A stretch of DNA of 36,464 bases from IMG/VR virus record IMGVR_UViG_2645727593_000019, one strand, 5' to 3'. A program made the position numbers and the translations under genes. Each line of letters starts with the position of its first letter. The stretch's first letter is position 1. Positions 1-36,464 of the stretch are shown in pieces. A model generated the notes under the pieces. That model had not been told where the DNA came from, searched no databases, and saw only the letters and a program-made list of their open reading frames with translations. Origin of the DNA: a virus. Lineage: Duplodnaviria > Heunggongvirae > Uroviricota > Caudoviricetes.

Positions 1-993
1 CTAATCGATGGACAGTTTATGGACACTTTCAGCCAGCGGATTAAAGTTGATCGCGTCCTGTAAAAAGTCCGGCGAAAAATGAGCGTACGTCATTGTTTGC
101 TGAATCGTTGCGTGCCCCAGGATTCGTTGCAACGTAACAATATTTCCGCCATTCATCATAAAGTGTGTGGCAAATGTATGACGCATGACATGCGTAGCCT
201 GCCCCTTCGGCAAATCCGGTTTCACCTCCTGAAGAATCTCCCGGAACTTCAGATAATCAACCTGATACAATAACCCCGTTCGACGGGTTTTAATCAGAGG
301 CACGACCGAATCCGCCACAGGAACCGAACGGGATTTTCCGTTTTTGGTGTTAAAGAACGTCACCCGGTTGCCAACGATATGCTCTCCACGTAGTTCCGAT
401 GCTTCACTCCATCGGGCACCAGTAGAAAGACACAGAATGGCAACACGACGCGCATCACCCTCCAGTCGTTCAAGAAGCCGTTCAATCTCATCATCAGAAA
501 GAAAGGCCATCTCTGTGTTCTGAACTTTCAGTTTTCGTATACCGCGTACAGGGTTCGCGTTGTGAAAGACCTCAGCTTCAATCAGCACCGTGAACATGGT
601 AGACAGTACGCATAAGTCACGATTAATACTGGACGGCATTAATCCGGCCTGTAATTTCTCTGACCGATATTCAAGCATAAATTTTCGCGTCATCTGACTG
701 GCGCGAGGATCTCCCATTTCACGAACAACCTTCCCTAGCCTAACCCTGTAGCTATCCCCGTAAGCCTGATTACGCCCATCAAGCATCCACCACGCATCAA
801 GCAGCTCTGATAATCGCCGCTGATCAGCTGGCTTAGCCTGCCATGGCTTGTCATGAAAGTTCTGTAACACATACTTCTCAAACTCCTGAGCCTTTGATTT
901 CAGGGCAAAGATTTTTCGAATCCGCTTTCCTTCCGCCCCCTGCGGTCTGACATCGACCTGATAACGTCCGTCTTTGAGTTGCTTAATCGACAT
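1..993 (-). CDS. int: tyrosine integrase, P2 Int family
   Basis: Track ORF 1..1008; start trimmed to MSIKQLKDGRY to match the P2 Int N-terminus; C-terminal HxxR...Y region (MRHTFATHFM...MTYAHF) present; stop codon at bases 1-3. Confidence 0.9.
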   Translation of the reverse strand: MSIKQLKDGRYQVDVRPQGAEGKRIRKIFALKSKAQEFEKYVLQNFHDKPWQAKPADQRRLSELLDAWWMLDGRNQAYGDSYRVRLGKVVREMGDPRASQMTRKFMLEYRSEKLQAGLMPSSINRDLCVLSTMFTVLIEAEVFHNANPVRGIRKLKVQNTEMAFLSDDEIERLLERLEGDARRVAILCLSTGARWSEASELRGEHIVGNRVTFFNTKNGKSRSVPVADSVVPLIKTRRTGLLYQVDYLKFREILQEVKPDLPKGQATHVMRHTFATHFMMNGGNIVTLQRILGHATIQQTMTYAHFSPDFLQDAINFNPLAESVHKLSID

Positions 994-1062
994 GATTAGC
1001 CCCTCCAACGGATAAATTAACTAAACACTCCTTGCGATATGTAATTCGCTCAATGTGTAGAG

Positions 1063-5133: not shown

Positions 5134-5960
5134 AGAAATTCAGACTCTTTCAGATTCTCCCGCTTTTTGCCGCCATCCTGCTGGTTGGTTGCGATCGCGT
5201 TGAGCCAGGTAATGTGGGCATCAAAGTCAACAAACTGGGCGACGACAAAGGCGTCGGTGAAGTGGTTGGCGTTGGCCGCTACTGGACAGGCTGGAATACA
5301 GAGGTTTACATCTTCCCGACCTTCAAACAAATGAAGAGTTACGATGAGCCGTTCAACTTCCAGATGAGTGACGGCACAACCATCGGCTATCACATCGGCG
5401 TGGCCTACAAAGTTGATCCATCCAAAGTTACCACGGTGTTTCAGACCTACCGCAAAGGCGTGGACGACATTACCGACACTGACCTGCGCCAGAAGATCGC
5501 CGATGCACTCAACCGACTGGCCAGCAAAATGACCACCGATAAGTTTATCGACGGTGGTAAGTCTGAACTGCTGGATTCAGCACTTAAAGATATTCAGGAA
5601 GAGATGACCCCCATCGGTATTCAGGTCATGAGCCTCTCTTATGTCGGTAAACCGGAATATCCGCCAACCGTTATCGACAGCATTAACGCCAAAGTCACGG
5701 CAAACCAGAAAACCCTGCAACGCGAACAGGAAGTCAAGCAGCGCGAAGCAGAAGCCAACATGTTGCGCGCAGAAGCTGCCGGACAGGCCGATGCCATTCG
5801 CACAAAAGCCCAGGCTGAAGCCGACGCCATTCGTTTACGCGGCGAAGCTCTGCGCCAGAATCCCGGCGTTATGGAGCTGGAAGCAATCAACAAATGGAAC
5901 GGCACGCTGCCGCAATACATGACCAGTAACACCGCTGTTCCGTTCGTTCCCGTGAAGTAA
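5130..5960 (+). CDS. SPFH/band-7 (stomatin-prohibitin-like) lipoprotein
   Basis: Signal peptide with lipobox LLVGC; band-7-like core followed by an Ala/Glu/Gln/Arg-rich coiled-coil tail (REQEVKQREAEANMLRAEAAGQADAIRTKAQAEADAIRLRGEA). Confidence 0.7.
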   Translation: MKKFRLFQILPLFAAILLVGCDRVEPGNVGIKVNKLGDDKGVGEVVGVGRYWTGWNTEVYIFPTFKQMKSYDEPFNFQMSDGTTIGYHIGVAYKVDPSKVTTVFQTYRKGVDDITDTDLRQKIADALNRLASKMTTDKFIDGGKSELLDSALKDIQEEMTPIGIQVMSLSYVGKPEYPPTVIDSINAKVTANQKTLQREQEVKQREAEANMLRAEAAGQADAIRTKAQAEADAIRLRGEALRQNPGVMELEAINKWNGTLPQYMTSNTAVPFVPVK

Positions 5961-5991: not shown

Positions 5992-6327
5992 AGCAGCATC
6001 AGGATTTTTTAGTATGCCGTTCTCACAAAAAAACCGCTTGCCATGCCGCAATCAGTCAGGTTACATTTCCGCTGCACCTCATAAAACGGGGGCCGGGATT
6101 GGAACCCCGCAGACTACAAGAGCGCACAACCGCGCCAGCGGTTTTTTTGTGCGTACTGTATTGCCACGTCTTTTTCGCACACGAATTATGGTGGGGCGTA
6201 CGGGGCCGATTTCGGTCGGGCCGGGATCTCTTGTAGCCGGTAGTTCCAACCCTGTACGTCTCACCACCCCGAGCTTGGAACCTCTGGATGGTGAGTTTTC
6301 ACAACTTACTACAAGAGGCCACATATC

Positions 6328-7002: not shown

Positions 7003-9825
7003 ATGACGGCAGAGTACATCAGGGACTGGCAACAACCGCGCCACGCAGTGGGGCGTGAAGGAACGGGGATCCCCGCTCCTGAATCCGCGCTTTCCTCCTG
7101 GCTGGATGCCTACCAGGCAGAGAACGAGCGCCGACAGGAAAAGGCTGATGCGGCGTTCTCCGCCACGCCGCTGGGCAACCTGATTAATAAAAGCCTGGAC
7201 GCACAGGAAAAACAGGACAAAACCATCACGCTGGCAGGAGACGCCAGAAGACAGGCACGCGGCGCGGTGGATGAAGCCATGGCCTCGCTGCGCCTGCTGC
7301 CGTCCTATCTGCGCGATCCGCTTATTCGCCACCTCTCCTTCCTGCGCAAAAAACAGGAAGTCGATCGCCGGAAAGGCAAAAAGAGCTGGCAGGCAGAACG
7401 CTATGCACGCGGAACCCTGCGCAAAATATTCGAACGTCTGGATCGCACTGACGGACACTGGCTGACACCGGGTTATCGCTCCCTTGCCGGACGCGAACGC
7501 CTGGACGATTTGCTTTACCTGCCGCAGCTCAACAAACACCAGATACAGACGCTGGCCACCATGACGGCGGCGATGTTCAGCAGCACCTTCGAAAAACTCT
7601 GCGATGGCTTTGGTGCGACTGATGGCGAGCTGACCATGGATGTAACGCTGAAGGCGTATCAGATGCTGGCCCGCATGGCGTTACACCTGCACGCCATGCC
7701 TCCGCATTATGACGCACTGACAACAGACAAAGGCCGGAGGAACGAACCAGACACGGAGCTGCTGCCGGGCGCAATCCTTCGCCTGACCTGTGCGGAATGG
7801 TGGAAACGCAAACTGTGGCTGTTACGTTGCGAGTGGAGAGAAGAACAACTCCGCGCCGCCTGTCTGGTTTCCAGAAAAACATCGCCCTATCTGAGCCAGG
7901 ATGCGTTAAGCGAGTTTCGCGCACAGCGCGAGAAAACACGCGATTTCCTGAAAAGTTTCATGCTGGAAAACGAAGACGGGTTCACGATTGATCTTGAGAC
8001 AGTGTATTACGCGGGAGTAAGTAACCCGGTTCACCGTAAGGCAGAAATGATGGCCACCATGAAGGGGCTGGAACTTCTGGCCGAAGCCCGTGGCGACAGA
8101 GCGGTGTTTCTGACTGTCACCTGCCCGTCAAAATACCACGCAACAACGGAGAACGGTCATCCGAATCCCAAATGGAACGGGGCCACTATGCGCGACTCCA
8201 GCGATTACCTGGTTAACTCGTTTTTTGCGGCGGTCCGCAAGAAACTGAACCGCGACGGCCTGCGCTGGTATGGCATCCGCACGGTGGAGCCTCACCATGA
8301 CGGCACCGTGCACTGGCATATGATGGTCTTTGCTCATCCGGAAGAAATCGACACCATTGTGTCCCACACCCGCGATATTGCCATTCAGGAAGATCGTCAC
8401 GAGCTGGGTGATGATATTACCCCACGCTTTAAGGCAGAGTACGTCGACGGCTCAAAAGGCACACCGACCAGCTACATCGCCACCTACATCGGAAAGAACC
8501 TGGACAGCCGCGCCGTGGATGGTATCGACCCGAAAACGGGCAAGCCACGCGTTGACCACGAAACCGGAAAATCAATGGCCGAGAGCGTGGAGCGCGCCAT
8601 CGGCTGGGCGCGCCTTCACCGGGTCCGCCAGTTCCAGTTCTTTGGCATCCCCTCCCGTCAGGTGTGGCGTGAACTGCGCCGCCTTGCCAGCCAGATGGCA
8701 CGCAACCCGGAAGGCCCGCAACGGCTGAAGGATGACGCAATGGATGCAGTGCTCGCTGCCGCTGATGCCGGGTGTTTTGCCTCCTACATTGAAAAACAGG
8801 GCGGCGTACTTGTTCCACGCAAAGACTACCTGATTCGCACCGCCTACGACCTCGCAGATGAGCTGAACGATTACGGCGAACAGAGCGTACAGATTTACGG
8901 GATCTGGTCACCACTCATCGGGGAGTCTTCCCGTGTGTGCACACATCCGGATAACTGGAAGCTGGTAAGACGTAAACCGGAAGCGGAAGACAGCGCCCGC
9001 GAAAATGGTTTTGACCTTCAGGGCGGCCCTGCCGCCCCTTGGACTCGTGGCAATAACTGTCCCCGTGTACAGGAAACAGGCAACAACGGGACAGAACAGC
9101 CGGAAGAACGGCCAGCACCGTGGCCGCAGCTTCCTGACGGCGTTGAAGTAAATGAATGGATGCGCTCACTGAAACGGCACGAACGCCGGGCGCTGATGCG
9201 TTCGCTTCGTGACAAACAGGCAAAAAACAGCAGCGATGAAATGCAGAACTGGACACAGAGCCGCAAACAGCAGCGGCCTTTGCCTGATAACCACGAGTTA
9301 CTCGCTAAAGAATGGCGGGAGTCTGCTGAATCTCTCGGCCTGCATATCGGTGAACAACAGATGCAGCACCTGTTACGGGGCGGCAGTCTGTACGTTGACG
9401 GCAGCATCATTGCACCGCAGGGATTTGAAATTGTACGCAAACCGGATACCCGCCCGGACAGCCGAATCACGCAGCTCTGGCAGCGTCTGAGCCGTAATCA
9501 TGGCGTAAGCAGCACGGAGATCCGCCATAACCCGGTCGCCAGCTATCTGGCACAGCTGGGGGCATCAGACCCTGAAGCCGCCGCACGCCTGGCATCCACA
9601 CTTCAGCAGGACCAGAACACCATGAAAACACCCGTTACCGTGCTTTCTGACATGCTGCGCGCCATCCGCGACGCAGAGCACGCACAGAGAATCAGTGAAA
9701 CCACTGAACGCGCCAGCCGCAAAGCAGACCTGCTGCGGGGTGGCCTGACCAGTGGAAACAAAAAACAGACAGAAACGGGACTCACGAATCCCGTAAATGA
9801 GCAAAAAACGCGCAGCGATATATGA
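7003..9825 (+). CDS. A: rolling-circle replication initiator, P2 A family (HUH endonuclease)
   Basis: HUH motif VHWHMMVFAH (about 8305-8335) and catalytic YxxxY pair SYIATYIGKN (about 8466-8498); position after the early operon; 940 aa with a long C-terminal extension. Confidence 0.9.
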   Translation: MTAEYIRDWQQPRHAVGREGTGIPAPESALSSWLDAYQAENERRQEKADAAFSATPLGNLINKSLDAQEKQDKTITLAGDARRQARGAVDEAMASLRLLPSYLRDPLIRHLSFLRKKQEVDRRKGKKSWQAERYARGTLRKIFERLDRTDGHWLTPGYRSLAGRERLDDLLYLPQLNKHQIQTLATMTAAMFSSTFEKLCDGFGATDGELTMDVTLKAYQMLARMALHLHAMPPHYDALTTDKGRRNEPDTELLPGAILRLTCAEWWKRKLWLLRCEWREEQLRAACLVSRKTSPYLSQDALSEFRAQREKTRDFLKSFMLENEDGFTIDLETVYYAGVSNPVHRKAEMMATMKGLELLAEARGDRAVFLTVTCPSKYHATTENGHPNPKWNGATMRDSSDYLVNSFFAAVRKKLNRDGLRWYGIRTVEPHHDGTVHWHMMVFAHPEEIDTIVSHTRDIAIQEDRHELGDDITPRFKAEYVDGSKGTPTSYIATYIGKNLDSRAVDGIDPKTGKPRVDHETGKSMAESVERAIGWARLHRVRQFQFFGIPSRQVWRELRRLASQMARNPEGPQRLKDDAMDAVLAAADAGCFASYIEKQGGVLVPRKDYLIRTAYDLADELNDYGEQSVQIYGIWSPLIGESSRVCTHPDNWKLVRRKPEAEDSARENGFDLQGGPAAPWTRGNNCPRVQETGNNGTEQPEERPAPWPQLPDGVEVNEWMRSLKRHERRALMRSLRDKQAKNSSDEMQNWTQSRKQQRPLPDNHELLAKEWRESAESLGLHIGEQQMQHLLRGGSLYVDGSIIAPQGFEIVRKPDTRPDSRITQLWQRLSRNHGVSSTEIRHNPVASYLAQLGASDPEAAARLASTLQQDQNTMKTPVTVLSDMLRAIRDAEHAQRISETTERASRKADLLRGGLTSGNKKQTETGLTNPVNEQKTRSDI

Positions 9826-9870
9826 GGCGCGCACAAAACAGGCAAAAACGGGATTTCAGAATCCCGTAAA
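9772..9870 (+). repeat. two copies of the palindrome ACGGGA-N8-TCCCGTAAA (candidate centromere/operator)
   Basis: Copy 1 at 9772-9797 (inside the 3' end of A); copy 2 at 9846-9870 (intergenic, upstream of parM); centres 73 bp apart. Confidence 0.5.
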
Positions 9871-9901
9871 CGATTAATTAATCAACATAAGGAAAACCGA
9901 C

Positions 9902-10861
9902 ATGAAAATTTACATCGACGACGGCTCCACCAACATCAAGCTGGCATGGACTGAGAACGGCGAACGCCGCAACGCCATCAGCCCGAACAGCTTCAAGTCG
10001 GAATGGTCTGCGCCGTTCGGTGGCTCGCAGCCTGCTAACTACATGCTTGATGGCGTGCGCTATGGTTTTGATCCGGTCAGCGATCGCTTTGTCCAGACGA
10101 CCGACACGCAATACCAGTACAGCGATGTGAATGTCATTGCCATTCATCACGCGCTGGTCAAATCAGACATCACGCCACAGGAAGTGGATGTGGTTGTTAC
10201 CCTGCCACTGAGCGAATATTTCGACACAAACGCACAGCCGGACATGGCCAACATCAACCGCAAAAAAGCGAACGTCATGCGCCCGGTGGAGTACCAGAAC
10301 GGCGAAGCATTCACTATCCGTAACGTACGGGTTATGCCTGAATCCATTCCGGCTGGCTTTAAAGCACTGGCTGACATGAGTCCGTTTGAATCCCTGCTGA
10401 TTGTGGATTTGGGCGGAACCACGCTGGATGTGGCAAAGGTTCAGGGGCAACTGGCAGGTATCAGCCAGGTGTTTTGCGATCCACACGTAGGCGTTTCTCT
10501 TATGGCCGATGCCGTACTGTCGGTGATGGCCACTAACGGTATGCGCACCAGTCACCACATCGCCAATACCATTATCGAACATCGCCATAATGAAGCCTGG
10601 CTGCGCCAGCACATCCACAATGACGCGCATTACGCCAGCCTGATGGCGGTTATTCGTGAAAAGGAAGAAACACTGAAACAACGCGTGATCCGCGCGCTGG
10701 CGGTTTTTTCGGGTTACGGGCGGGTGATGGTTGTCGGTGGCGGGGCGGAGATTGTGGCACCCGCTATCCGCGAAGCCTGCGGAGTTAATGCGACTTTCAT
10801 CGCGGACGGGGTGCCACAGTTTGCTCTGGTTAATGGGCTGTACGCAATGGACAAGGAGTAA
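9902..10861 (+). CDS. parM: actin-like ATPase, ParM/StbA family
   Basis: N-terminus MKIYIDDGSTNIKLAW and motifs DLGGTTLD, VMPESIPAG, VVGGGAE match plasmid R1 ParM as I recall it. Confidence 0.85.
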   Translation: MKIYIDDGSTNIKLAWTENGERRNAISPNSFKSEWSAPFGGSQPANYMLDGVRYGFDPVSDRFVQTTDTQYQYSDVNVIAIHHALVKSDITPQEVDVVVTLPLSEYFDTNAQPDMANINRKKANVMRPVEYQNGEAFTIRNVRVMPESIPAGFKALADMSPFESLLIVDLGGTTLDVAKVQGQLAGISQVFCDPHVGVSLMADAVLSVMATNGMRTSHHIANTIIEHRHNEAWLRQHIHNDAHYASLMAVIREKEETLKQRVIRALAVFSGYGRVMVVGGGAEIVAPAIREACGVNATFIADGVPQFALVNGLYAMDKE

Positions 10862-10865
10862 ACCA

Positions 10866-11177
10866 ATGACGACACCAACCAGACGGATAAGTTTCTATCT
10901 GAAGCCCGCCGCCGTCAAGAACGAAGGAGAAGCATGCGCCTGGCTGGACAGCCTTACACCAGAAGCCCGCAAAAGCGGCCAACGCGTGGCTTTTCTGGCC
11001 GGGCTGGCACTTCTGAAGACGAATCCGGCAGAGGCTTACCGACTGGCCGCATGGGCTGATGATGAGATGTTACCTGTGACACAAATCAGCTCAAAAAAGT
11101 TTGAAGCACAGTCTGCACCAGTGGCTAAGATAACCAGCCAGATGGCTGGGAATATCCGGGCGTTATTTCCTGAGTAA
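10866..11177 (+). CDS. parR: ParR/StbB-like DNA-binding adaptor
   Basis: Track ORF 10731..11177 trimmed to ATG 10866; N-terminus RRISFYLKPA...LDSLTPEARKSGQRVAFLAGLAL parallels R1 ParR; starts 5 nt after parM. Confidence 0.6.
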   Translation: MTTPTRRISFYLKPAAVKNEGEACAWLDSLTPEARKSGQRVAFLAGLALLKTNPAEAYRLAAWADDEMLPVTQISSKKFEAQSAPVAKITSQMAGNIRALFPE

Positions 11178-11245
11178 AAGCATCTGCGCGAAAAATGCTC
11201 ACGTTTATAGAGACAGTATCATTCCATTTGGCACACTTACTTCAA

Positions 11246-11290
11246 TAATCGATCTGTTAAACAAATAGATTGTCTATTATCTATCGATTA
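11246..11290 (+). promoter_or_regulatory. nested palindrome upstream of a promoter (candidate operator)
   Basis: TAATCGAT...ATCGATTA outer inverted repeat with inner AATAGA-TTG-TCTATT; AT-rich. Confidence 0.35.
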
Positions 11291-11304
11291 AAACGATCAA
11301 TTAT

Positions 11305-11333
11305 CTTGACAGTAATGTGCCTTTTTGTAAGAT
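11305..11333 (+). promoter_or_regulatory. candidate sigma70 promoter, rightward
   Basis: TTGACA, 16-nt spacer, TAAGAT. Confidence 0.4.
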
Positions 11334-11382
11334 CGTTCGCATTGTGAGCGACAAGATAATTGCGCGGCATTGTCCATGCAAA

Positions 11383-11526
11383 ACGCCCCAATAGCAGCAA
11401 CTATTGGGGCGTAAAACTCGGTCGGACTCACTTAACCTGATATGCGTGCCTTCCGAAGTAAATCAAAATGTGCGTCGTATATTTTATTGCTTACACGCAC
11501 CTCTGTAAAGGCACGCATATTTTTCC
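11383..11526 (+). ncRNA. structured leader or small RNA upstream of the 11542 gene
   Basis: 12-bp perfect hairpin at 11383-11412; 12-bp inverted repeat ATATGCGTGCCT/AGGCACGCATAT (11440-11451/11509-11520) enclosing an inner GTGCGT/ACGCAC pair and followed by TTTT; ends 16 nt before the start codon. Confidence 0.35.
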
Positions 11527-11541
11527 TATGAGGTAAATAAA

Positions 11542-11811
11542 GTGCGGGCTAAAACAGGTATTTGCAAGAACCCTCATCGTTATAATCCAACATTTCTGTC
11601 TCTCCCTGAATATCAAGGACAAGAAGGTCGGCACAAATGCGCTGCCTGTGCTTTTGAGCTAGGCATAAAAGATGCGCTTGAAGGACGCGCTATGGCTCAG
11701 AATGATTTAGTTTTAGCTAACATTCCGTTTAGCCAGGCTGGAACTGTAAGGCACAGAGATGCCTATGAAGCATATGTTCGTGGTTGGCGATTAATAAACA
11801 GCAACAATTGA
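11542..11811 (+). CDS. hypothetical 89-aa protein with Cys/His cluster
   Basis: GTG start with SD GAGGT 7 nt upstream; CKNPH...HKCAACAF suggests possible metal binding; followed by a strong terminator. Confidence 0.5.
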   Translation: MRAKTGICKNPHRYNPTFLSLPEYQGQEGRHKCAACAFELGIKDALEGRAMAQNDLVLANIPFSQAGTVRHRDAYEAYVRGWRLINSNN

Positions 11812-11819
11812 TACTTTTG

Positions 11820-11843
11820 AAGCGCCGATAAGGCGCTTTTTTT
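11820..11843 (+). terminator. rho-independent terminator
   Basis: AAGCGCC-GATA-AGGCGC stem-loop followed by T7. Confidence 0.8.
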
Positions 11844-11845
11844 GT

Positions 11846-12297
11846 TTGCACGATAGTGCACAAGTTTGCACAATTTTTTTGAACGACTTTTTGTACTTCC
11901 GGCCCGCGTGGTGGCTGGATCCGTCAAGGATCCGTACGTGCACAAAAAAACGCGTTTTTTCTGCGCGCAGGTGACGGGGGAACAGCCCGCGTTTCAGGGG
12001 GTAAATAGCATCCCCTGAACGATGTCGCAGCGACACAACAGAATGGCTGTATTTCTCACGCTGAGCGTGAAAAAGACGTGAGGGCTTTTGATTTGATGGG
12101 GTGACAGATAAGGCCGTCAAAATCGCACTGAGGCGGCGAGAACATGCAGTCAACGCGGTGGGATTGCGTAAGAGCCTGACCGTCGATGATGGCGATAAGC
12201 TGGAAGACGTCGTGAAATTATCTGATTGATACAGGAGCTGGAGAGCCGGGGCATAAATTTTTTATGCCCCGACGAAGCAGCAGACAAGCGAAGCGCG
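11846..12297. other. cos/packaging region (exact cos position not determined)
   Basis: Lies between the accessory island and Q as in P2; phased TGCAC repeats at about 11846-11872; GGATCCGT direct repeat; A6-CGCG-T6 palindrome at about 11944-11961; G-rich candidates near 11975-11995 and 12130-12150 loosely resemble the P2/186 cohesive end. Confidence 0.4.
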
Positions 12298-13344
12298 TCA
12301 GGATGTGGGCTGGGTGTCTAACAGTGCGTAAGGGTTAAAGCGGATCACCTCTTCGCCAAGCCAGTCATTGATGTGCTTCATAGCCTCCATAACGGGCATC
12401 AGCTCGTTAATTGCATAAACCCGCGCGGCCTTCTCCACATCACCAAACGCACTTTTTTCGCCCGGCATCGCCCCCATCAGTTGCGGCGGAACGCGGTGCG
12501 CAGCCAGTACATCATCACGGGATGCCGCCTTAACATTCATGAACTCATCCTTTGCGGTGATCTGCTGGAACGGCAAAATTTGCACCCCCTCTTTGCCCCC
12601 GTTGGGCGCATGAATGAGCACATTTTTAAATGCACCACCACCACGCGCACCCTGTAACGTTTCTTTCAGGGAGTCCATGCTTTCGCGGTTTACCTGCGCT
12701 GCACCGATGTAGATGATGCACCCGGCGTGGGATCCGTTGTCGTAGTACAGTTTTCTGAACATGTCCGCCGAATGAGAAAGGCTGGCCGAGAGTAATGCGC
12801 CAAGATATTCCGGCATGCCGTAGATTTCCTGGTTAATATCCGGATTCATCAGGTGGCATACTTTGCCAGGGCGAAACTGAAACGCGTCCTTACCATCCTG
12901 CACATACCACCATGATTCAAGATCGCTTCCGCGTCGCATGTATTTCGCCAGGGCGTGCCGTAATTTAAGCGGTTCGCCGAGCATATTGCTTCGAAGCTCA
13001 AGGAATGCATTACCGAACACAAACCAGTCCAGCGCCAGCGCCGAGAAATCCTGCCGGGAAAGCAGCGGGTGCGGGATGTAGCAACCGAGTAATACATTGC
13101 GCTTAAAGTAAAGCGCAGACTGATGCCAGGACGTTTGCCGGGCTGCTCTTGCCAGACCGTACCAGTCCACCGGGGTTTCATACCACCGCCCGTTATCAGC
13201 ACAGTACGTATTGTCCAGCAGGTCATGCCCGGTCAGGCGATAAGGACCATCAAATGTGAATGCACTGAGCGATGATTCTTTCCTGAGCGCATCAGCGAGA
13301 TCAATGCGTGAACTCATGCGCACTTTTTTGTTTTTTCTGCTCAT
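12298..13344 (-). CDS. Q: portal protein
   Basis: Track ORF 12298..13425 trimmed to MSRKNKK; matches P2 Q (FTFDGP, HALAKYMRRG, DINQEIYG, RFNPY). Confidence 0.9.
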   Translation of the reverse strand: MSRKNKKVRMSSRIDLADALRKESSLSAFTFDGPYRLTGHDLLDNTYCADNGRWYETPVDWYGLARAARQTSWHQSALYFKRNVLLGCYIPHPLLSRQDFSALALDWFVFGNAFLELRSNMLGEPLKLRHALAKYMRRGSDLESWWYVQDGKDAFQFRPGKVCHLMNPDINQEIYGMPEYLGALLSASLSHSADMFRKLYYDNGSHAGCIIYIGAAQVNRESMDSLKETLQGARGGGAFKNVLIHAPNGGKEGVQILPFQQITAKDEFMNVKAASRDDVLAAHRVPPQLMGAMPGEKSAFGDVEKAARVYAINELMPVMEAMKHINDWLGEEVIRFNPYALLDTQPTS

Positions 13345-15095
13345 CAGAACTCCATAACCGTGAAACGCTCGTTTTCTCCTTCGCCGCCAATCGGTTCGTT
13401 CATGACAGCAAGCATGGTTGCCCACGCAAGGTCGCCGTGGCTGATCCCCCTCGCGCGGTCCGTTTCGTAAGTGATAAAGCCGCCCGGTGTTTTCACCTTA
13501 CGCACGGCGTTAAAGGCCGCGACCAGCTCGCGTTCGGCGCGATCGTATTCCCACCGCCCGGCACGCATTATTTGCAGCATTTTCAGTACCAGCGACCGTT
13601 TTGATGACAGCGTGAAGGTGTACGGAATAGCAGCAGGGAAAAACCGTTTCACTATCTGATAAACAGCCTCCCCGTTCCCGCCCGTCACATCAATGCCGAT
13701 GTGTTCCACGTTGTAGCGATACGTGAACTCTTCAATGACTCTGGCCTGTTCTTCAAACTCCAGCCCCTGAACGCGTCGCGTCTCCACCGTTCGAAAACGG
13801 CCACCAGGAACAGCCGGAGGAACCACCACGGACACAGCGCCGCTGTCGCCGTTGCCACTACTGCCGTTTGCGTCATACCCAATCCATACCGGACGATTCC
13901 CCATCGGGCGGGGAGCAAAAGGTTTCCAGTCTTTCCAGTCGTCGTATCCGTCAACACCGCAGCCAATCAGGATATTCAGGTTAAATGCCGATTCCCCTTC
14001 GCGGACAAACTCACACATATAGAGATTGAGGAACTCGTCTTCGGTGTTTTCATCACGAATTTCGTCGATATCAGTGTGTTTCCAGCCGTGATTAACCACA
14101 TCTTCCAGCGTGACAATTTGCCGCCACGTCCGGTCAGGGCAGATAAGCCCGTTATGCAGCGTTTTCCAGTCCACAGAAAAACGCTGGCGTTTATGCGAGG
14201 CCTTTTTCTCATTCCAGCGGTCGCCGTTCCAGTAGGCGTATGCCTCGTGCGTTTCGGTGGATGGCGTGGAGAAGTAGGTGCGCCGCAGTCCGCTGAGGGT
14301 TGCCATAGCGCCAGCCACCTTGCGCAGTTCAGCAAAGCGACTGACCCAGAAAAATTCATCAAAATAAAAATTGCCCGTATAGGACTGTGCCGACGCAGCA
14401 GAAGTGCCGAGAAAATGCAGCTCTGCGCCGTTGGAGAGGATGATTTTATCGCCCCCTTTCAGCTCCACATCAACTTCAGCCGCGGCCTTCTGAATAATGC
14501 TTTTAAACTGGAACGCCTGACGACGCGACGCAGACAAAAAAATCTGGTTACGCTGGTAAGGTTGCGCCACATCGTCACGCAGCGCCATCAGCAGTGCTTC
14601 CTGTGCAAAATACCAGGTCGCCCCAATCTGTCGGGATTTCAGGATCATCCTGTTACGTATCCCGGCTTCCCTGCAAAGGGTCAGGGAGTCAAACCAGCCC
14701 CGCTGATGCCACTCCAGCCTGCTGATGATTTTTTCCCGCAGTGCGGCAATCTGTTCCGGCGTGAAATGATTTTTGAGTTTTTTCGCCCGGCCTTTCTTTC
14801 CTGCGGCCGTCGCATCCGGCTGGCCATCATGCAGCTTTTTAAGCTGCCGGGTCAGCAGGTCTATTTCCTTAAAGTCACCGCCTGTTTTATTCTGTTTTTC
14901 AGTAAGCTGGATGAGGCGCGCATCGATGGACTGCGTGACACGCTGCACGGGTGGCGTTTCATCCCACTGGTCACGTTTTTTCCACGCATAAATCGTGTTC
15001 GGGTTTATTCCCATCAGACGTGATATTTCTGCGGGCGGATAACCCTGCCAGTAAAGTTGCCGCGCACGCTGGCGCACAAAAGCGTCCTGAATCAT
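13344..15095 (-). CDS. P: terminase large (ATPase) subunit
   Basis: Track ORF; P2 P-like N-terminus (RARQLYWQGY) and size; stop overlaps the Q start. Confidence 0.9.
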   Translation of the reverse strand: MIQDAFVRQRARQLYWQGYPPAEISRLMGINPNTIYAWKKRDQWDETPPVQRVTQSIDARLIQLTEKQNKTGGDFKEIDLLTRQLKKLHDGQPDATAAGKKGRAKKLKNHFTPEQIAALREKIISRLEWHQRGWFDSLTLCREAGIRNRMILKSRQIGATWYFAQEALLMALRDDVAQPYQRNQIFLSASRRQAFQFKSIIQKAAAEVDVELKGGDKIILSNGAELHFLGTSAASAQSYTGNFYFDEFFWVSRFAELRKVAGAMATLSGLRRTYFSTPSTETHEAYAYWNGDRWNEKKASHKRQRFSVDWKTLHNGLICPDRTWRQIVTLEDVVNHGWKHTDIDEIRDENTEDEFLNLYMCEFVREGESAFNLNILIGCGVDGYDDWKDWKPFAPRPMGNRPVWIGYDANGSSGNGDSGAVSVVVPPAVPGGRFRTVETRRVQGLEFEEQARVIEEFTYRYNVEHIGIDVTGGNGEAVYQIVKRFFPAAIPYTFTLSSKRSLVLKMLQIMRAGRWEYDRAERELVAAFNAVRKVKTPGGFITYETDRARGISHGDLAWATMLAVMNEPIGGEGENERFTVMEF

Positions 15096-34730: not shown

Positions 34731-34871
34731 ATGTCGCAAAAATCGCTTACGGCCATCACGTTCTGCGTGACGGTAATCCTCATAATCTGGATGCTGCACG
34801 GTTCGCTGTGTGAAATACGGATGAGCTTCTGGGGAGCGGAGTTTGCGGCGTTCTTACAGTGTAAGCAGTAA
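34731..34871 (+). CDS. hok: Hok/Gef-family type I toxin
   Basis: 46-aa ORF MSQKSLTAITFCVTVILIIWMLHGSLCEIRMSFWGAEFAAFLQCKQ: TM helix followed by the SLCEIR and AAFL.CK signatures of Hok proteins; SD AAGGAG 9 nt upstream. Confidence 0.6.
   Translation: MSQKSLTAITFCVTVILIIWMLHGSLCEIRMSFWGAEFAAFLQCKQ

Positions 34872-35171: not shown

Positions 35172-36464
<1,293 letters not shown>

Follow-up and report, generated by a model that had tools for sequence, protein, structure and literature searches.

The window analysed here, the 36,464-nucleotide stretch of the IMG/VR virus record IMGVR_UViG_2645727593_000019, contains a P2-type prophage. Directly downstream of its replication gene A, the prophage carries homologs of the partition genes parM and parR of plasmid R1. 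Two palindromic repeats, candidate binding sites of the ParR protein, precede parM, and the distal one is located inside the 3′ end of gene A. The locus is composed of the following features.

7003–9825, plus strand: gene A, encoding a gpA-type rolling-circle replication endonuclease of 940 amino acids (Pfam Phage_GPA, E 2e-130, residues 179–503).
9759–9800, no strand assigned: repeat unit 1, 42 nt long, within the coding sequence of gene A at its 3′ end; candidate distal parC or ParR-binding site.
9775–9794, no strand assigned: palindrome 1, ACGGGACTCACGAATCCCGT, built as ACGGGACT-CACG-AATCCCGT, 127 nt upstream of the parM ATG.
9832–9873, no strand assigned: repeat unit 2, 42 nt, intergenic; candidate proximal parC site or operator.
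9848–9867, no strand assigned: palindrome 2, ACGGGATTTCAGAATCCCGT, built as ACGGGATT-TCAG-AATCCCGT, 54 nt upstream of the parM ATG.
9902–10861, plus strand: parM, encoding an actin-like segregation ATPase of 319 amino acids, identified by Pfam, PHROG and the alignment with R1 ParM.
10866–11177, plus strand: parR, encoding a predicted ribbon-helix-helix (RHH) centromere-binding adaptor of 103 amino acids (Pfam PF10784).

The ParM protein is composed of an N-terminal StbA_N domain (PF06406, E 9.7e-81) and a ParM C-terminal domain (PF21523, E 3e-68), both matched far above the Pfam cut-offs and in agreement with the PHROG match. It aligns end to end (residues 1–316) with the structure of plasmid R1 ParM, 1mwk, at about 50% identity (E 7.7e-92). 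R1 ParM contains a phosphate 1 motif, DDGSTN, the catalytic residues E148 and D170, and an adenosine motif, GGGA. In the alignment, the motifs DDGSTNIK, MPESIPAG (with E147), DLGGTT(LD) (with D169) and GGGAE of the phage protein are all identical to those of R1 ParM. By these matches, the encoded protein is a genuine R1-family ParM belonging to the StbA family. The ratio of nonsynonymous to synonymous substitution rates (dN/dS) in pairwise comparisons of parM is 0.05–0.2, and reaches 0.05 at a dS of 0.61 against the variant from Hafnia. parM is under strong purifying selection.

The start of parR was taken as the ATG at 10866, 4 nt past the parM stop codon; the mechanically called open reading frame (ORF), 10731–11177, opens at an upstream TTG. 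Residues 6–71 of ParR match the Pfam family Plasmid_stab_B (PF10784, E 9.8e-24), and the match to phrog_2515, a PHROG family named "partition protein", covers 103 of 103 positions. A profile built from phage and plasmid ParRs matches the structure of pB171 ParR (PDB 2jd3) over positions 5–80 with an E of 7.4e-11. The encoded protein is, as judged from these profiles, a genuine ParR with the N-terminal RHH domain of the ParR/StbB family. The Pfam, PHROG, 1mwk and 2jd3 matches bear out the assignment of both proteins in an original prediction, which had been made from the letters of the sequence and had described a ParM/ParR partition-like module with palindromic repeats.

We compared the locus with about 90 related loci, comprising loci with diverged ParR alleles (from 84% down to 54% identity) and 80 loci from IMG/VR. 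ParR is 103–104 residues long and intact in nearly all of them. Its residues 1–16 are invariant and conservation extends to about residue 62. The following linker of about 30 residues, roughly positions 66–95, is hypervariable, and some phages therefore match only 76% of a 1.6-kb DNA query. The C-terminus is again conserved as N-I-(R/Q)-x-(L/F/M)-F-P-E. When plasmid ParRs from the R1-like loci L008–L013, whose ParMs are 47–51% identical to the phage protein, are added to the alignment, N96 and F101 remain invariant within a shared motif N-x-x-x-[LFM]-F. The ParR tail of R1 and pB171 binds ParM, and the conservation of the phage tail fits such a role. A tblastn search of 72,556 plasmids for ParR of the phage type gave only seven records, all of which contain the same gpA-parM-parR phage DNA. 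Because of this absence from other plasmids, the phage ParRs are classed, on sequence similarity, as a phage-specific subfamily with a mosaic linker. A hunt for more distant phages bearing ParR or ParM returned only near-identical loci or plasmid-type systems.

The two palindromes are the cores of 42-nt direct repeats that are 81% identical to each other. They are spaced 73 bp from start to start, and each is followed by AAA. The original prediction had placed two ACGGGA-N8 palindromes at this spacing, with one lying in the 3′ part of gene A, and both are found there; repeat unit 1 falls in the last ~50 nt of the gene. The pattern ACGGGA-N8-TCCCGT, with at most one mismatch, occurs twice in the 36.5-kb window, compared to 0.03 occurrences expected, and none of 100 shuffled sequences reached two. 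No further copy was found in the window, even with two mismatches allowed. In IMG/VR, CGGGATT-N4-AATCCCG is present in 79 P88-like loci and in 40 unrelated single occurrences, the latter being consistent with chance background.

The palindromes are kept at positions −127 and −54 from parM, with a spacing of 73 ± 1 bp, in about 90 loci from E. coli, E. albertii, Salmonella and Hafnia. Their conservation persists where the surrounding sequence of gene A diverges. The arms GGGA(T/C)T and AATCC(C/T) are fixed, and the changes are located in the central four bases and at the outermost positions. The R1-like plasmid loci contain two iteron blocks repeated at 72–73 bp, which matches the geometry of the phage palindromes. 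In the plasmids and in phage D6, the TCTCA-type direct iterons flank a near-consensus sigma-70 promoter of the TTGACA/TATAAT type. A consensus scan of 9500–9902 detected no sigma-70 promoter in the phage, which leaves room for a weak or activated one; the best candidate picked by hand upstream of parM, TTCAGA-16-ATTAAT, matches 8 of 12 positions. No plus-strand terminator was found between gene A and parM. From their sequence and position, we propose that the palindromes are a candidate centromere, parC.

It is improbable, in our estimate, that the palindromes are instead tandem intrinsic terminators for leftward transcription, or signals of gene A or the origin, and that ParR binds elsewhere or only autoregulates. 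Both palindromes do score as terminator-like on the minus strand, with an 8-bp stem and a T-rich tail, U-rich in the RNA, and the RNA hairpins have energies of about −10 kcal/mol. They also co-occur with a lineage-specific C-terminus of gpA as tightly as with parM and parR, so the association of the palindromes with ParR is a putative one. However, as terminators the stems would be weak ones, and the tail of copy 1 is TTCTGTCTG. No leftward gene ends at the palindromes, and one would expect any shield from antisense transcripts of the cargo or late genes to be placed downstream of parR, not 1.3 kb further on. The site just upstream of parM, the 73-bp block spacing shared with plasmid relatives, the fixed arms and the strict spacing fit an array for protein binding. 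Within the phage collection, the palindromes could not be uncoupled from gene A by means of relatives that have the gpA C-terminus and lack parMR, as the co-occurrence there is perfect.

The C-terminal 240 residues of gpA (residues 701–940, encoded at 9103–9822) contain no Pfam domain. In the phage collection, tblastn detects them only in the 14 records that also carry parMR. By this distribution, the segment of ~240 residues extends the replication nuclease in a lineage-specific manner. Among complete E. coli genomes, the gpA C-terminus (at least 80% coverage) is present in 1357 and parM in 1279. The ~78 genomes without full parM, about 6% of those with this gpA C-terminus and some of them containing decayed prophages, indicate that gpA can exist alone. 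They thus bear on a further explanation, by which ParM and ParR would be mainly cofactors of the gpA HUH nickase, acting in nicking or at the replisome, and not a segregation motor. R1 ParM and ParR both bind to TraI, whose relaxase activity they stimulate (PMC4949242), and srpC adjoins oriT in SXT/R391 elements (PMC4489591). Similarly, the phage cassette abuts gpA, contains one candidate ParR site inside gene A, and co-occurs with the gpA extension. However, the polymerization-related motifs of ParM and the tail of ParR are all conserved, as expected of a motor, and we give this replication role, which is suggested purely by analogy, a low probability.

The gene order gpA-parM-parR, with gpA of 913–941 residues, is invariant in the ~90 loci. 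The segment from parR to the portal gene is 802–2481 bp long and differs in gene content. The par cassette is a lineage-constant neighbor of the replication gene, and the variable slot, similar to that of tin and old in P2, starts after parR, because the order of the three genes is constant and the segment beyond them varies. The original prediction had placed the module in the tin/old slot. The position between gene A and the cos/portal region agrees with this placement, but the cassette itself is not variable hotspot cargo.

This constancy also bears on a role in defense or exclusion, in which ParM and ParR would be repurposed against incoming phages or against plasmids bearing ParMRC, such as those of the IncFII type, as tin and old occupy the slot in P2. 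The cassette lies within the gpA-gpQ locus, a defense hotspot (PMC9122126), and its ParM is 50% identical to R1 ParM. However, PADLOC returned no match for either protein, and the cassette is fixed beside gpA instead of being swapped as defense cargo is. Its own cis sites have been conserved along with parM and parR, and this speaks for a self-directed function. The GGGATT/AATCCC palindromes are unlike the TCTCA-type iterons of plasmids, and the phage ParR is too distant from plasmid ParRs for tblastn; cross-talk with plasmid centromeres is therefore unlikely. The defensive role raised in the original prediction is, on balance, highly improbable.

In the loci L017–L019, which carry the ParR allele of 54% identity, a 42-residue ORF with a weak StbA_N Pfam match directly follows parR (5309–5437). 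This ORF looks like what is left of another parM fragment, and hints that par cassettes have recombined here in the past. In the prophage Sp13 of strain Sakai (L301, 7201–8270), an IS629/IS1203 insertion replaces the segment just after parR and the head genes are missing. This defective prophage still keeps gpA-stbA-parR intact.

The 1.6-kb segment is present at a DNA identity of at least 94% in 14 phage records, which include P88, 520873, 503458, PhiR44_2, P884B11, Citrobacter phiSM and Chuche, and belong in or near the genus Xuanwuvirus of the Peduoviridae. parM is found in 1303 of 5426 complete E. coli genomes (24%), at 1441 chromosomal places and on two plasmid records. The genes already bear the RefSeq/PGAP names "plasmid segregation protein ParM" and "plasmid partitioning/stability family protein". 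They are also named in phage P88 records, and the same genes in the defective prophage Sp13 of O157:H7 Sakai are annotated as stbA. A 226-kb contig labelled Vagococcus sp. (L006, NZ_JBQPOM010000071.1) contains a 97%-identical enterobacterial P88-like gpA-parM-parR locus, which probably reflects contamination or a wrong label of the assembly.

Rousset et al. 2022 (PMC9122126) examined the gpA-gpQ locus in P2-like phages of E. coli and identified it as a defense hotspot. They noted a "putative plasmid partitioning system" in "around a fourth" of the phages, raised the idea that these phages are "maintained as plasmids", and listed StbA and Plasmid_stab_B arrangements in their tables. Theirs are the same genes in the same locus, with a frequency that compares with the 24% found here, and the hypothesis is the same. 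Their treatment comprises one sentence and table entries; the text and supplements searched contain no cis sites, lineage linkage, selection analysis or functional test. The phiSM paper (PMC6456863) lists the gene as a "fitness" factor. The cassette and the plasmid hypothesis are thus already known, being both annotated and published. What is added here is the candidate parC with its conservation, the recognition that the cassette is a module of the lineage rather than hotspot cargo, the ParR subfamily specific to phages, and evidence against a generally plasmid-borne lifestyle. The original prediction had considered a complete segregation system unexpected on an integrating P2-type phage. This view does not hold, given its presence in 24% of complete E. 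coli genomes, its existing annotation, its mention in PMC9122126, and the working ParM-type systems known from other integrating elements, srpMRC (PMC4489591) and AlpAC (PMC4446434).

The idea of Rousset et al. 2022 (PMC9122126) is that the cassette lets P88-like phages persist as stable low-copy plasmids instead of integrating. One record fits this idea: NZ_CP148288.1 (L002), listed in PLSDB as a closed circular "plasmid" of 34,461 bp, comes from an E. coli isolated from a cat. It comprises a complete P88-like genome closed at attP, in which integrase, parMR and hok are intact. The presence on the phage of hok, the other stability function of R1, points in the same direction, as does phage D6, a true plasmid prophage that uses a related StbA/StbB pair. 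However, the closed circle is equally explained as an excised or induced form caught by long-read assembly, and the integrase type of NZ_CP148288.1 is chromosomal in all 311 places where it was found. Of the 1443 places where parM occurs in complete E. coli genomes, 1441 are chromosomal, and an integrase is retained in every locus examined. The only replication function identified in the window and annotated relatives is gpA; no theta-type replicon or copy-control module was seen there, in analyses that included no dedicated replicon search. Moreover, there is no consensus promoter before parM for expression under repressor control. We therefore regard a stable plasmid lifestyle as unlikely, and the episomal maintenance suggested in the original prediction is disfavored by the excess of chromosomal places over the two plasmid records.

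The closest known relative of the cassette is parMRC of R1/IncFII plasmids (the parA locus, with StbA and StbB). Both consist of a cis site, parM and parR, in this order. Their ParM proteins are 50% identical over the full length and have identical ATPase motifs; their ParR proteins belong to the same Pfam family, and share the RHH N-terminus and the C-terminal N-x-x-x-L-F tail. The R1-like loci have two binding blocks about 73 bp apart, and R1 also carries hok. However, the replicon here is an integrating P2-type phage and not a plasmid. The phage has two 20-bp palindromes instead of arrays of 11-bp TCTCA-type direct iterons, one of its blocks lies within the coding sequence of gene A, and its consensus scan gives no strong sigma-70 promoter between the blocks. 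The phage ParR, with 103 residues compared to ~120, belongs to a phage-only subfamily.

Two partition systems of integrated elements resemble the phage cassette in their setting. The srpMRC system of SXT/R391 integrative and conjugative elements (ICEs) is a ParM-type system on a normally integrated element, and acts on the excised circle, which replicates by means of an HUH nickase, as the phage does (Carraro et al. 2015, PMC4489591). Its centromere, srpC, functions with four 13-bp repeats that are bound stably as pairs (PMC4489591). SrpM and SrpR are only distant from R1 ParM and ParR, whereas the phage proteins are close R1 homologs; the ICE system was demonstrated experimentally (PMC4489591), whereas the function of the phage cassette is predicted from sequence. 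In the prophage CGP3 of C. glutamicum, AlpAC and alpS similarly combine an actin-like filament with an adaptor at specific phage sites (Donovan et al. 2015, PMC4446434; PMC5539076). AlpAC acts on phage DNA after induction, and aids the transport of viral DNA and the efficiency of replication, and not classical partition (PMC4446434; PMC5539076). It differs from the P88-like cassette in its distant actin-like family and actinobacterial host.

Among 50,697 phage records, the only other phage with an R1-type ParM is D6, a P1-like plasmid prophage, whose StbA is 47% identical. A reference to "phage P88 StbA" is already present in the GenBank note of D6. With its 91 kb, D6 is a true plasmid prophage and has plasmid-type TCTCA iterons upstream of the genes, whereas the P88-like phages integrate and have palindromic sites.

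We hypothesize, with moderate confidence, that gene neighbors parM and parR and the two palindromes constitute a complete and functional R1-family type II (ParMRC) segregation cassette, a near-constant neighbor of gpA in P88-like (Xuanwuvirus) phages, which moves extrachromosomal phage circles. ParR dimers would bind through their N-terminal RHH domains to the four half-sites of the two 20-bp palindromes. They would be arranged as two dimer pairs on one face of the helix, with the 73-bp spacing corresponding to about seven helical turns. The palindromes would form a small centromere and probably double as an operator. The C-terminal peptide of ParR (N-I-R-A-L-F-P-E) would capture the ends of ATP-ParM filaments, and insertional growth of the filaments between two ParR-parC complexes would separate phage DNA circles, as in R1.

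The cassette, which is situated 3′-most in the rightward early (cox...B...A) operon, would be made together with gpA. We infer this co-expression because the genes are distal in the early operon, with neither a plus-strand terminator following gene A nor a consensus promoter in front of parM. The substrates would be extrachromosomal circles, present in the interval between infection and integration, following excision, or while gpA drives rolling-circle replication. As a result, copies of the phage genome would be spread to both daughter cells or throughout the cell, comparable to the outcomes of srpMRC in SXT/R391 and AlpAC in CGP3.

Several observations weigh against this segregation model. 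The parC of R1 is composed of ten iterons, and the R1-like loci examined have several iterons in each block; the phage has only two palindromes with four half-sites, and these might be merely an operator. The terminator-like fold of the palindromes on the minus strand also counts here, and the expression timing is drawn solely from the consensus scan. P2-type replication by a cis-acting nickase belongs to the lytic phase, and partition brings no benefit to a lone circle that has not replicated. A test for covariation of ParR with its sites had no power, as all ParR alleles, down to 42% identity, keep the invariant N-terminal strand. The literature searched for the cassette (P88, Xuanwuvirus, ECs2634) contains annotation-level mentions and no functional work.

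The remainder of the window agrees with a P2-type prophage. It starts with the integrase gene (1–1008, minus strand), which is followed by the rightward early operon ending at gpA. The portal and terminase genes are oriented leftward at 12298–15095, and are followed by P2-family capsid, lysis and tail genes, ogr and hok. The features outside the par cassette are listed below.

11178–12297, no strand assigned: variable cargo segment and cos region, between parR and the portal gene.
11542–11811, plus strand: 89-residue ORF with a C-x-x-C motif, matching phrog_3941 (unknown function), with promoter-like and terminator-like sites of its own.
12298–13425, minus strand: portal gene (gpQ homolog), which bounds the gpA-gpQ locus on its far side; in NZ_CP016625.1, whose stretch is identical, the annotation reads phage portal protein.
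34731–34871, plus strand: hok/gef-family toxin gene at the right end of the prophage, after ogr and outside the par cassette.
35172–36464, strand not given: serS, a host gene adjoining the right end of the prophage.

The junction with serS is the only host junction inside the window, and no tRNA genes are present in it. Together with the integrase and the P2-type genes, this junction confirms the integrated P2-type prophage of the original prediction. Positions 9700–11300 of the window are 100% identical to the btuC-ihfA prophage of O157:H7 FRIK944 (NZ_CP016625.1). The window prophage as a whole was rejected as being that prophage, since outside this stretch the window belongs to a mosaic relative that adjoins serS.

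The cargo segment contains a plus-strand promoter-like sequence, TTGACA-16-TAAGAT (11306–11333), which faces a minus-strand TTTACA-17-TAAAAT (11509–11481). A strong hairpin with a U-run is located on the minus strand at 11411–11384. The 107-nt minus-strand segment 11476–11370, which contains this hairpin, folds at −36.5 kcal/mol with a z of −3.7. The minus-strand signals look like an antisense RNA of ~95 nt that overlaps the 5′ leader of the 89-residue ORF; the Rfam scan of the whole window gave no match above the gathering score for it. Rfam detected an isrK Hfq-binding RNA (67 bits) at 6074–6148 and a C4 antisense RNA (79 bits) at 6184–6271, both above the gathering score and on the plus strand. 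The two neighbor each other within the early region and precede the derepression/ash-like genes and gene A. They suggest a C4 antisense immunity element in the style of P1 and P7 within a P2-type prophage.

The hok product is 98% identical over 46 residues (tblastn) to the annotated Hok/Gef protein of NZ_CP016625.1 (FRIK944). The same gene is also present at the corresponding end of the circular record NZ_CP148288.1 and of phage 520873. By homology, this phage carries counterparts of both R1 stability loci, parMRC and hok/sok (parB of R1), and hok fits the reading of a plasmid-style stability toolkit. We speculate that the two-palindrome centromere, located partly in the replication gene, and ParM and ParR, possibly with hok, give an integrating phage that replicates by rolling circle a regulated plasmid-like phase, either as a heritable carrier state or as lysogeny of both daughter cells, the cassette maybe being coupled physically to the gpA nickase as R1 ParMR is to TraI; this extension is tentative and, in our view, rather unlikely.

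Roughly a quarter of the sequenced E. coli strains have the cassette within a P2-type prophage, intact and under selection. If the speculated plasmid-like phase is real, a quarter of the P2-type prophages of E. coli have a step in their lifestyle that lies outside the P2 paradigm. The candidate cis sites are pinpointed, and the value of the locus lies in the well-defined, testable question that it poses. A transient plasmid-like stage, if real, would bear on the frequency of lysogenization, prophage loss and carrier states, and would extend to phages the blurring of integrative elements and plasmids shown for SXT/R391.

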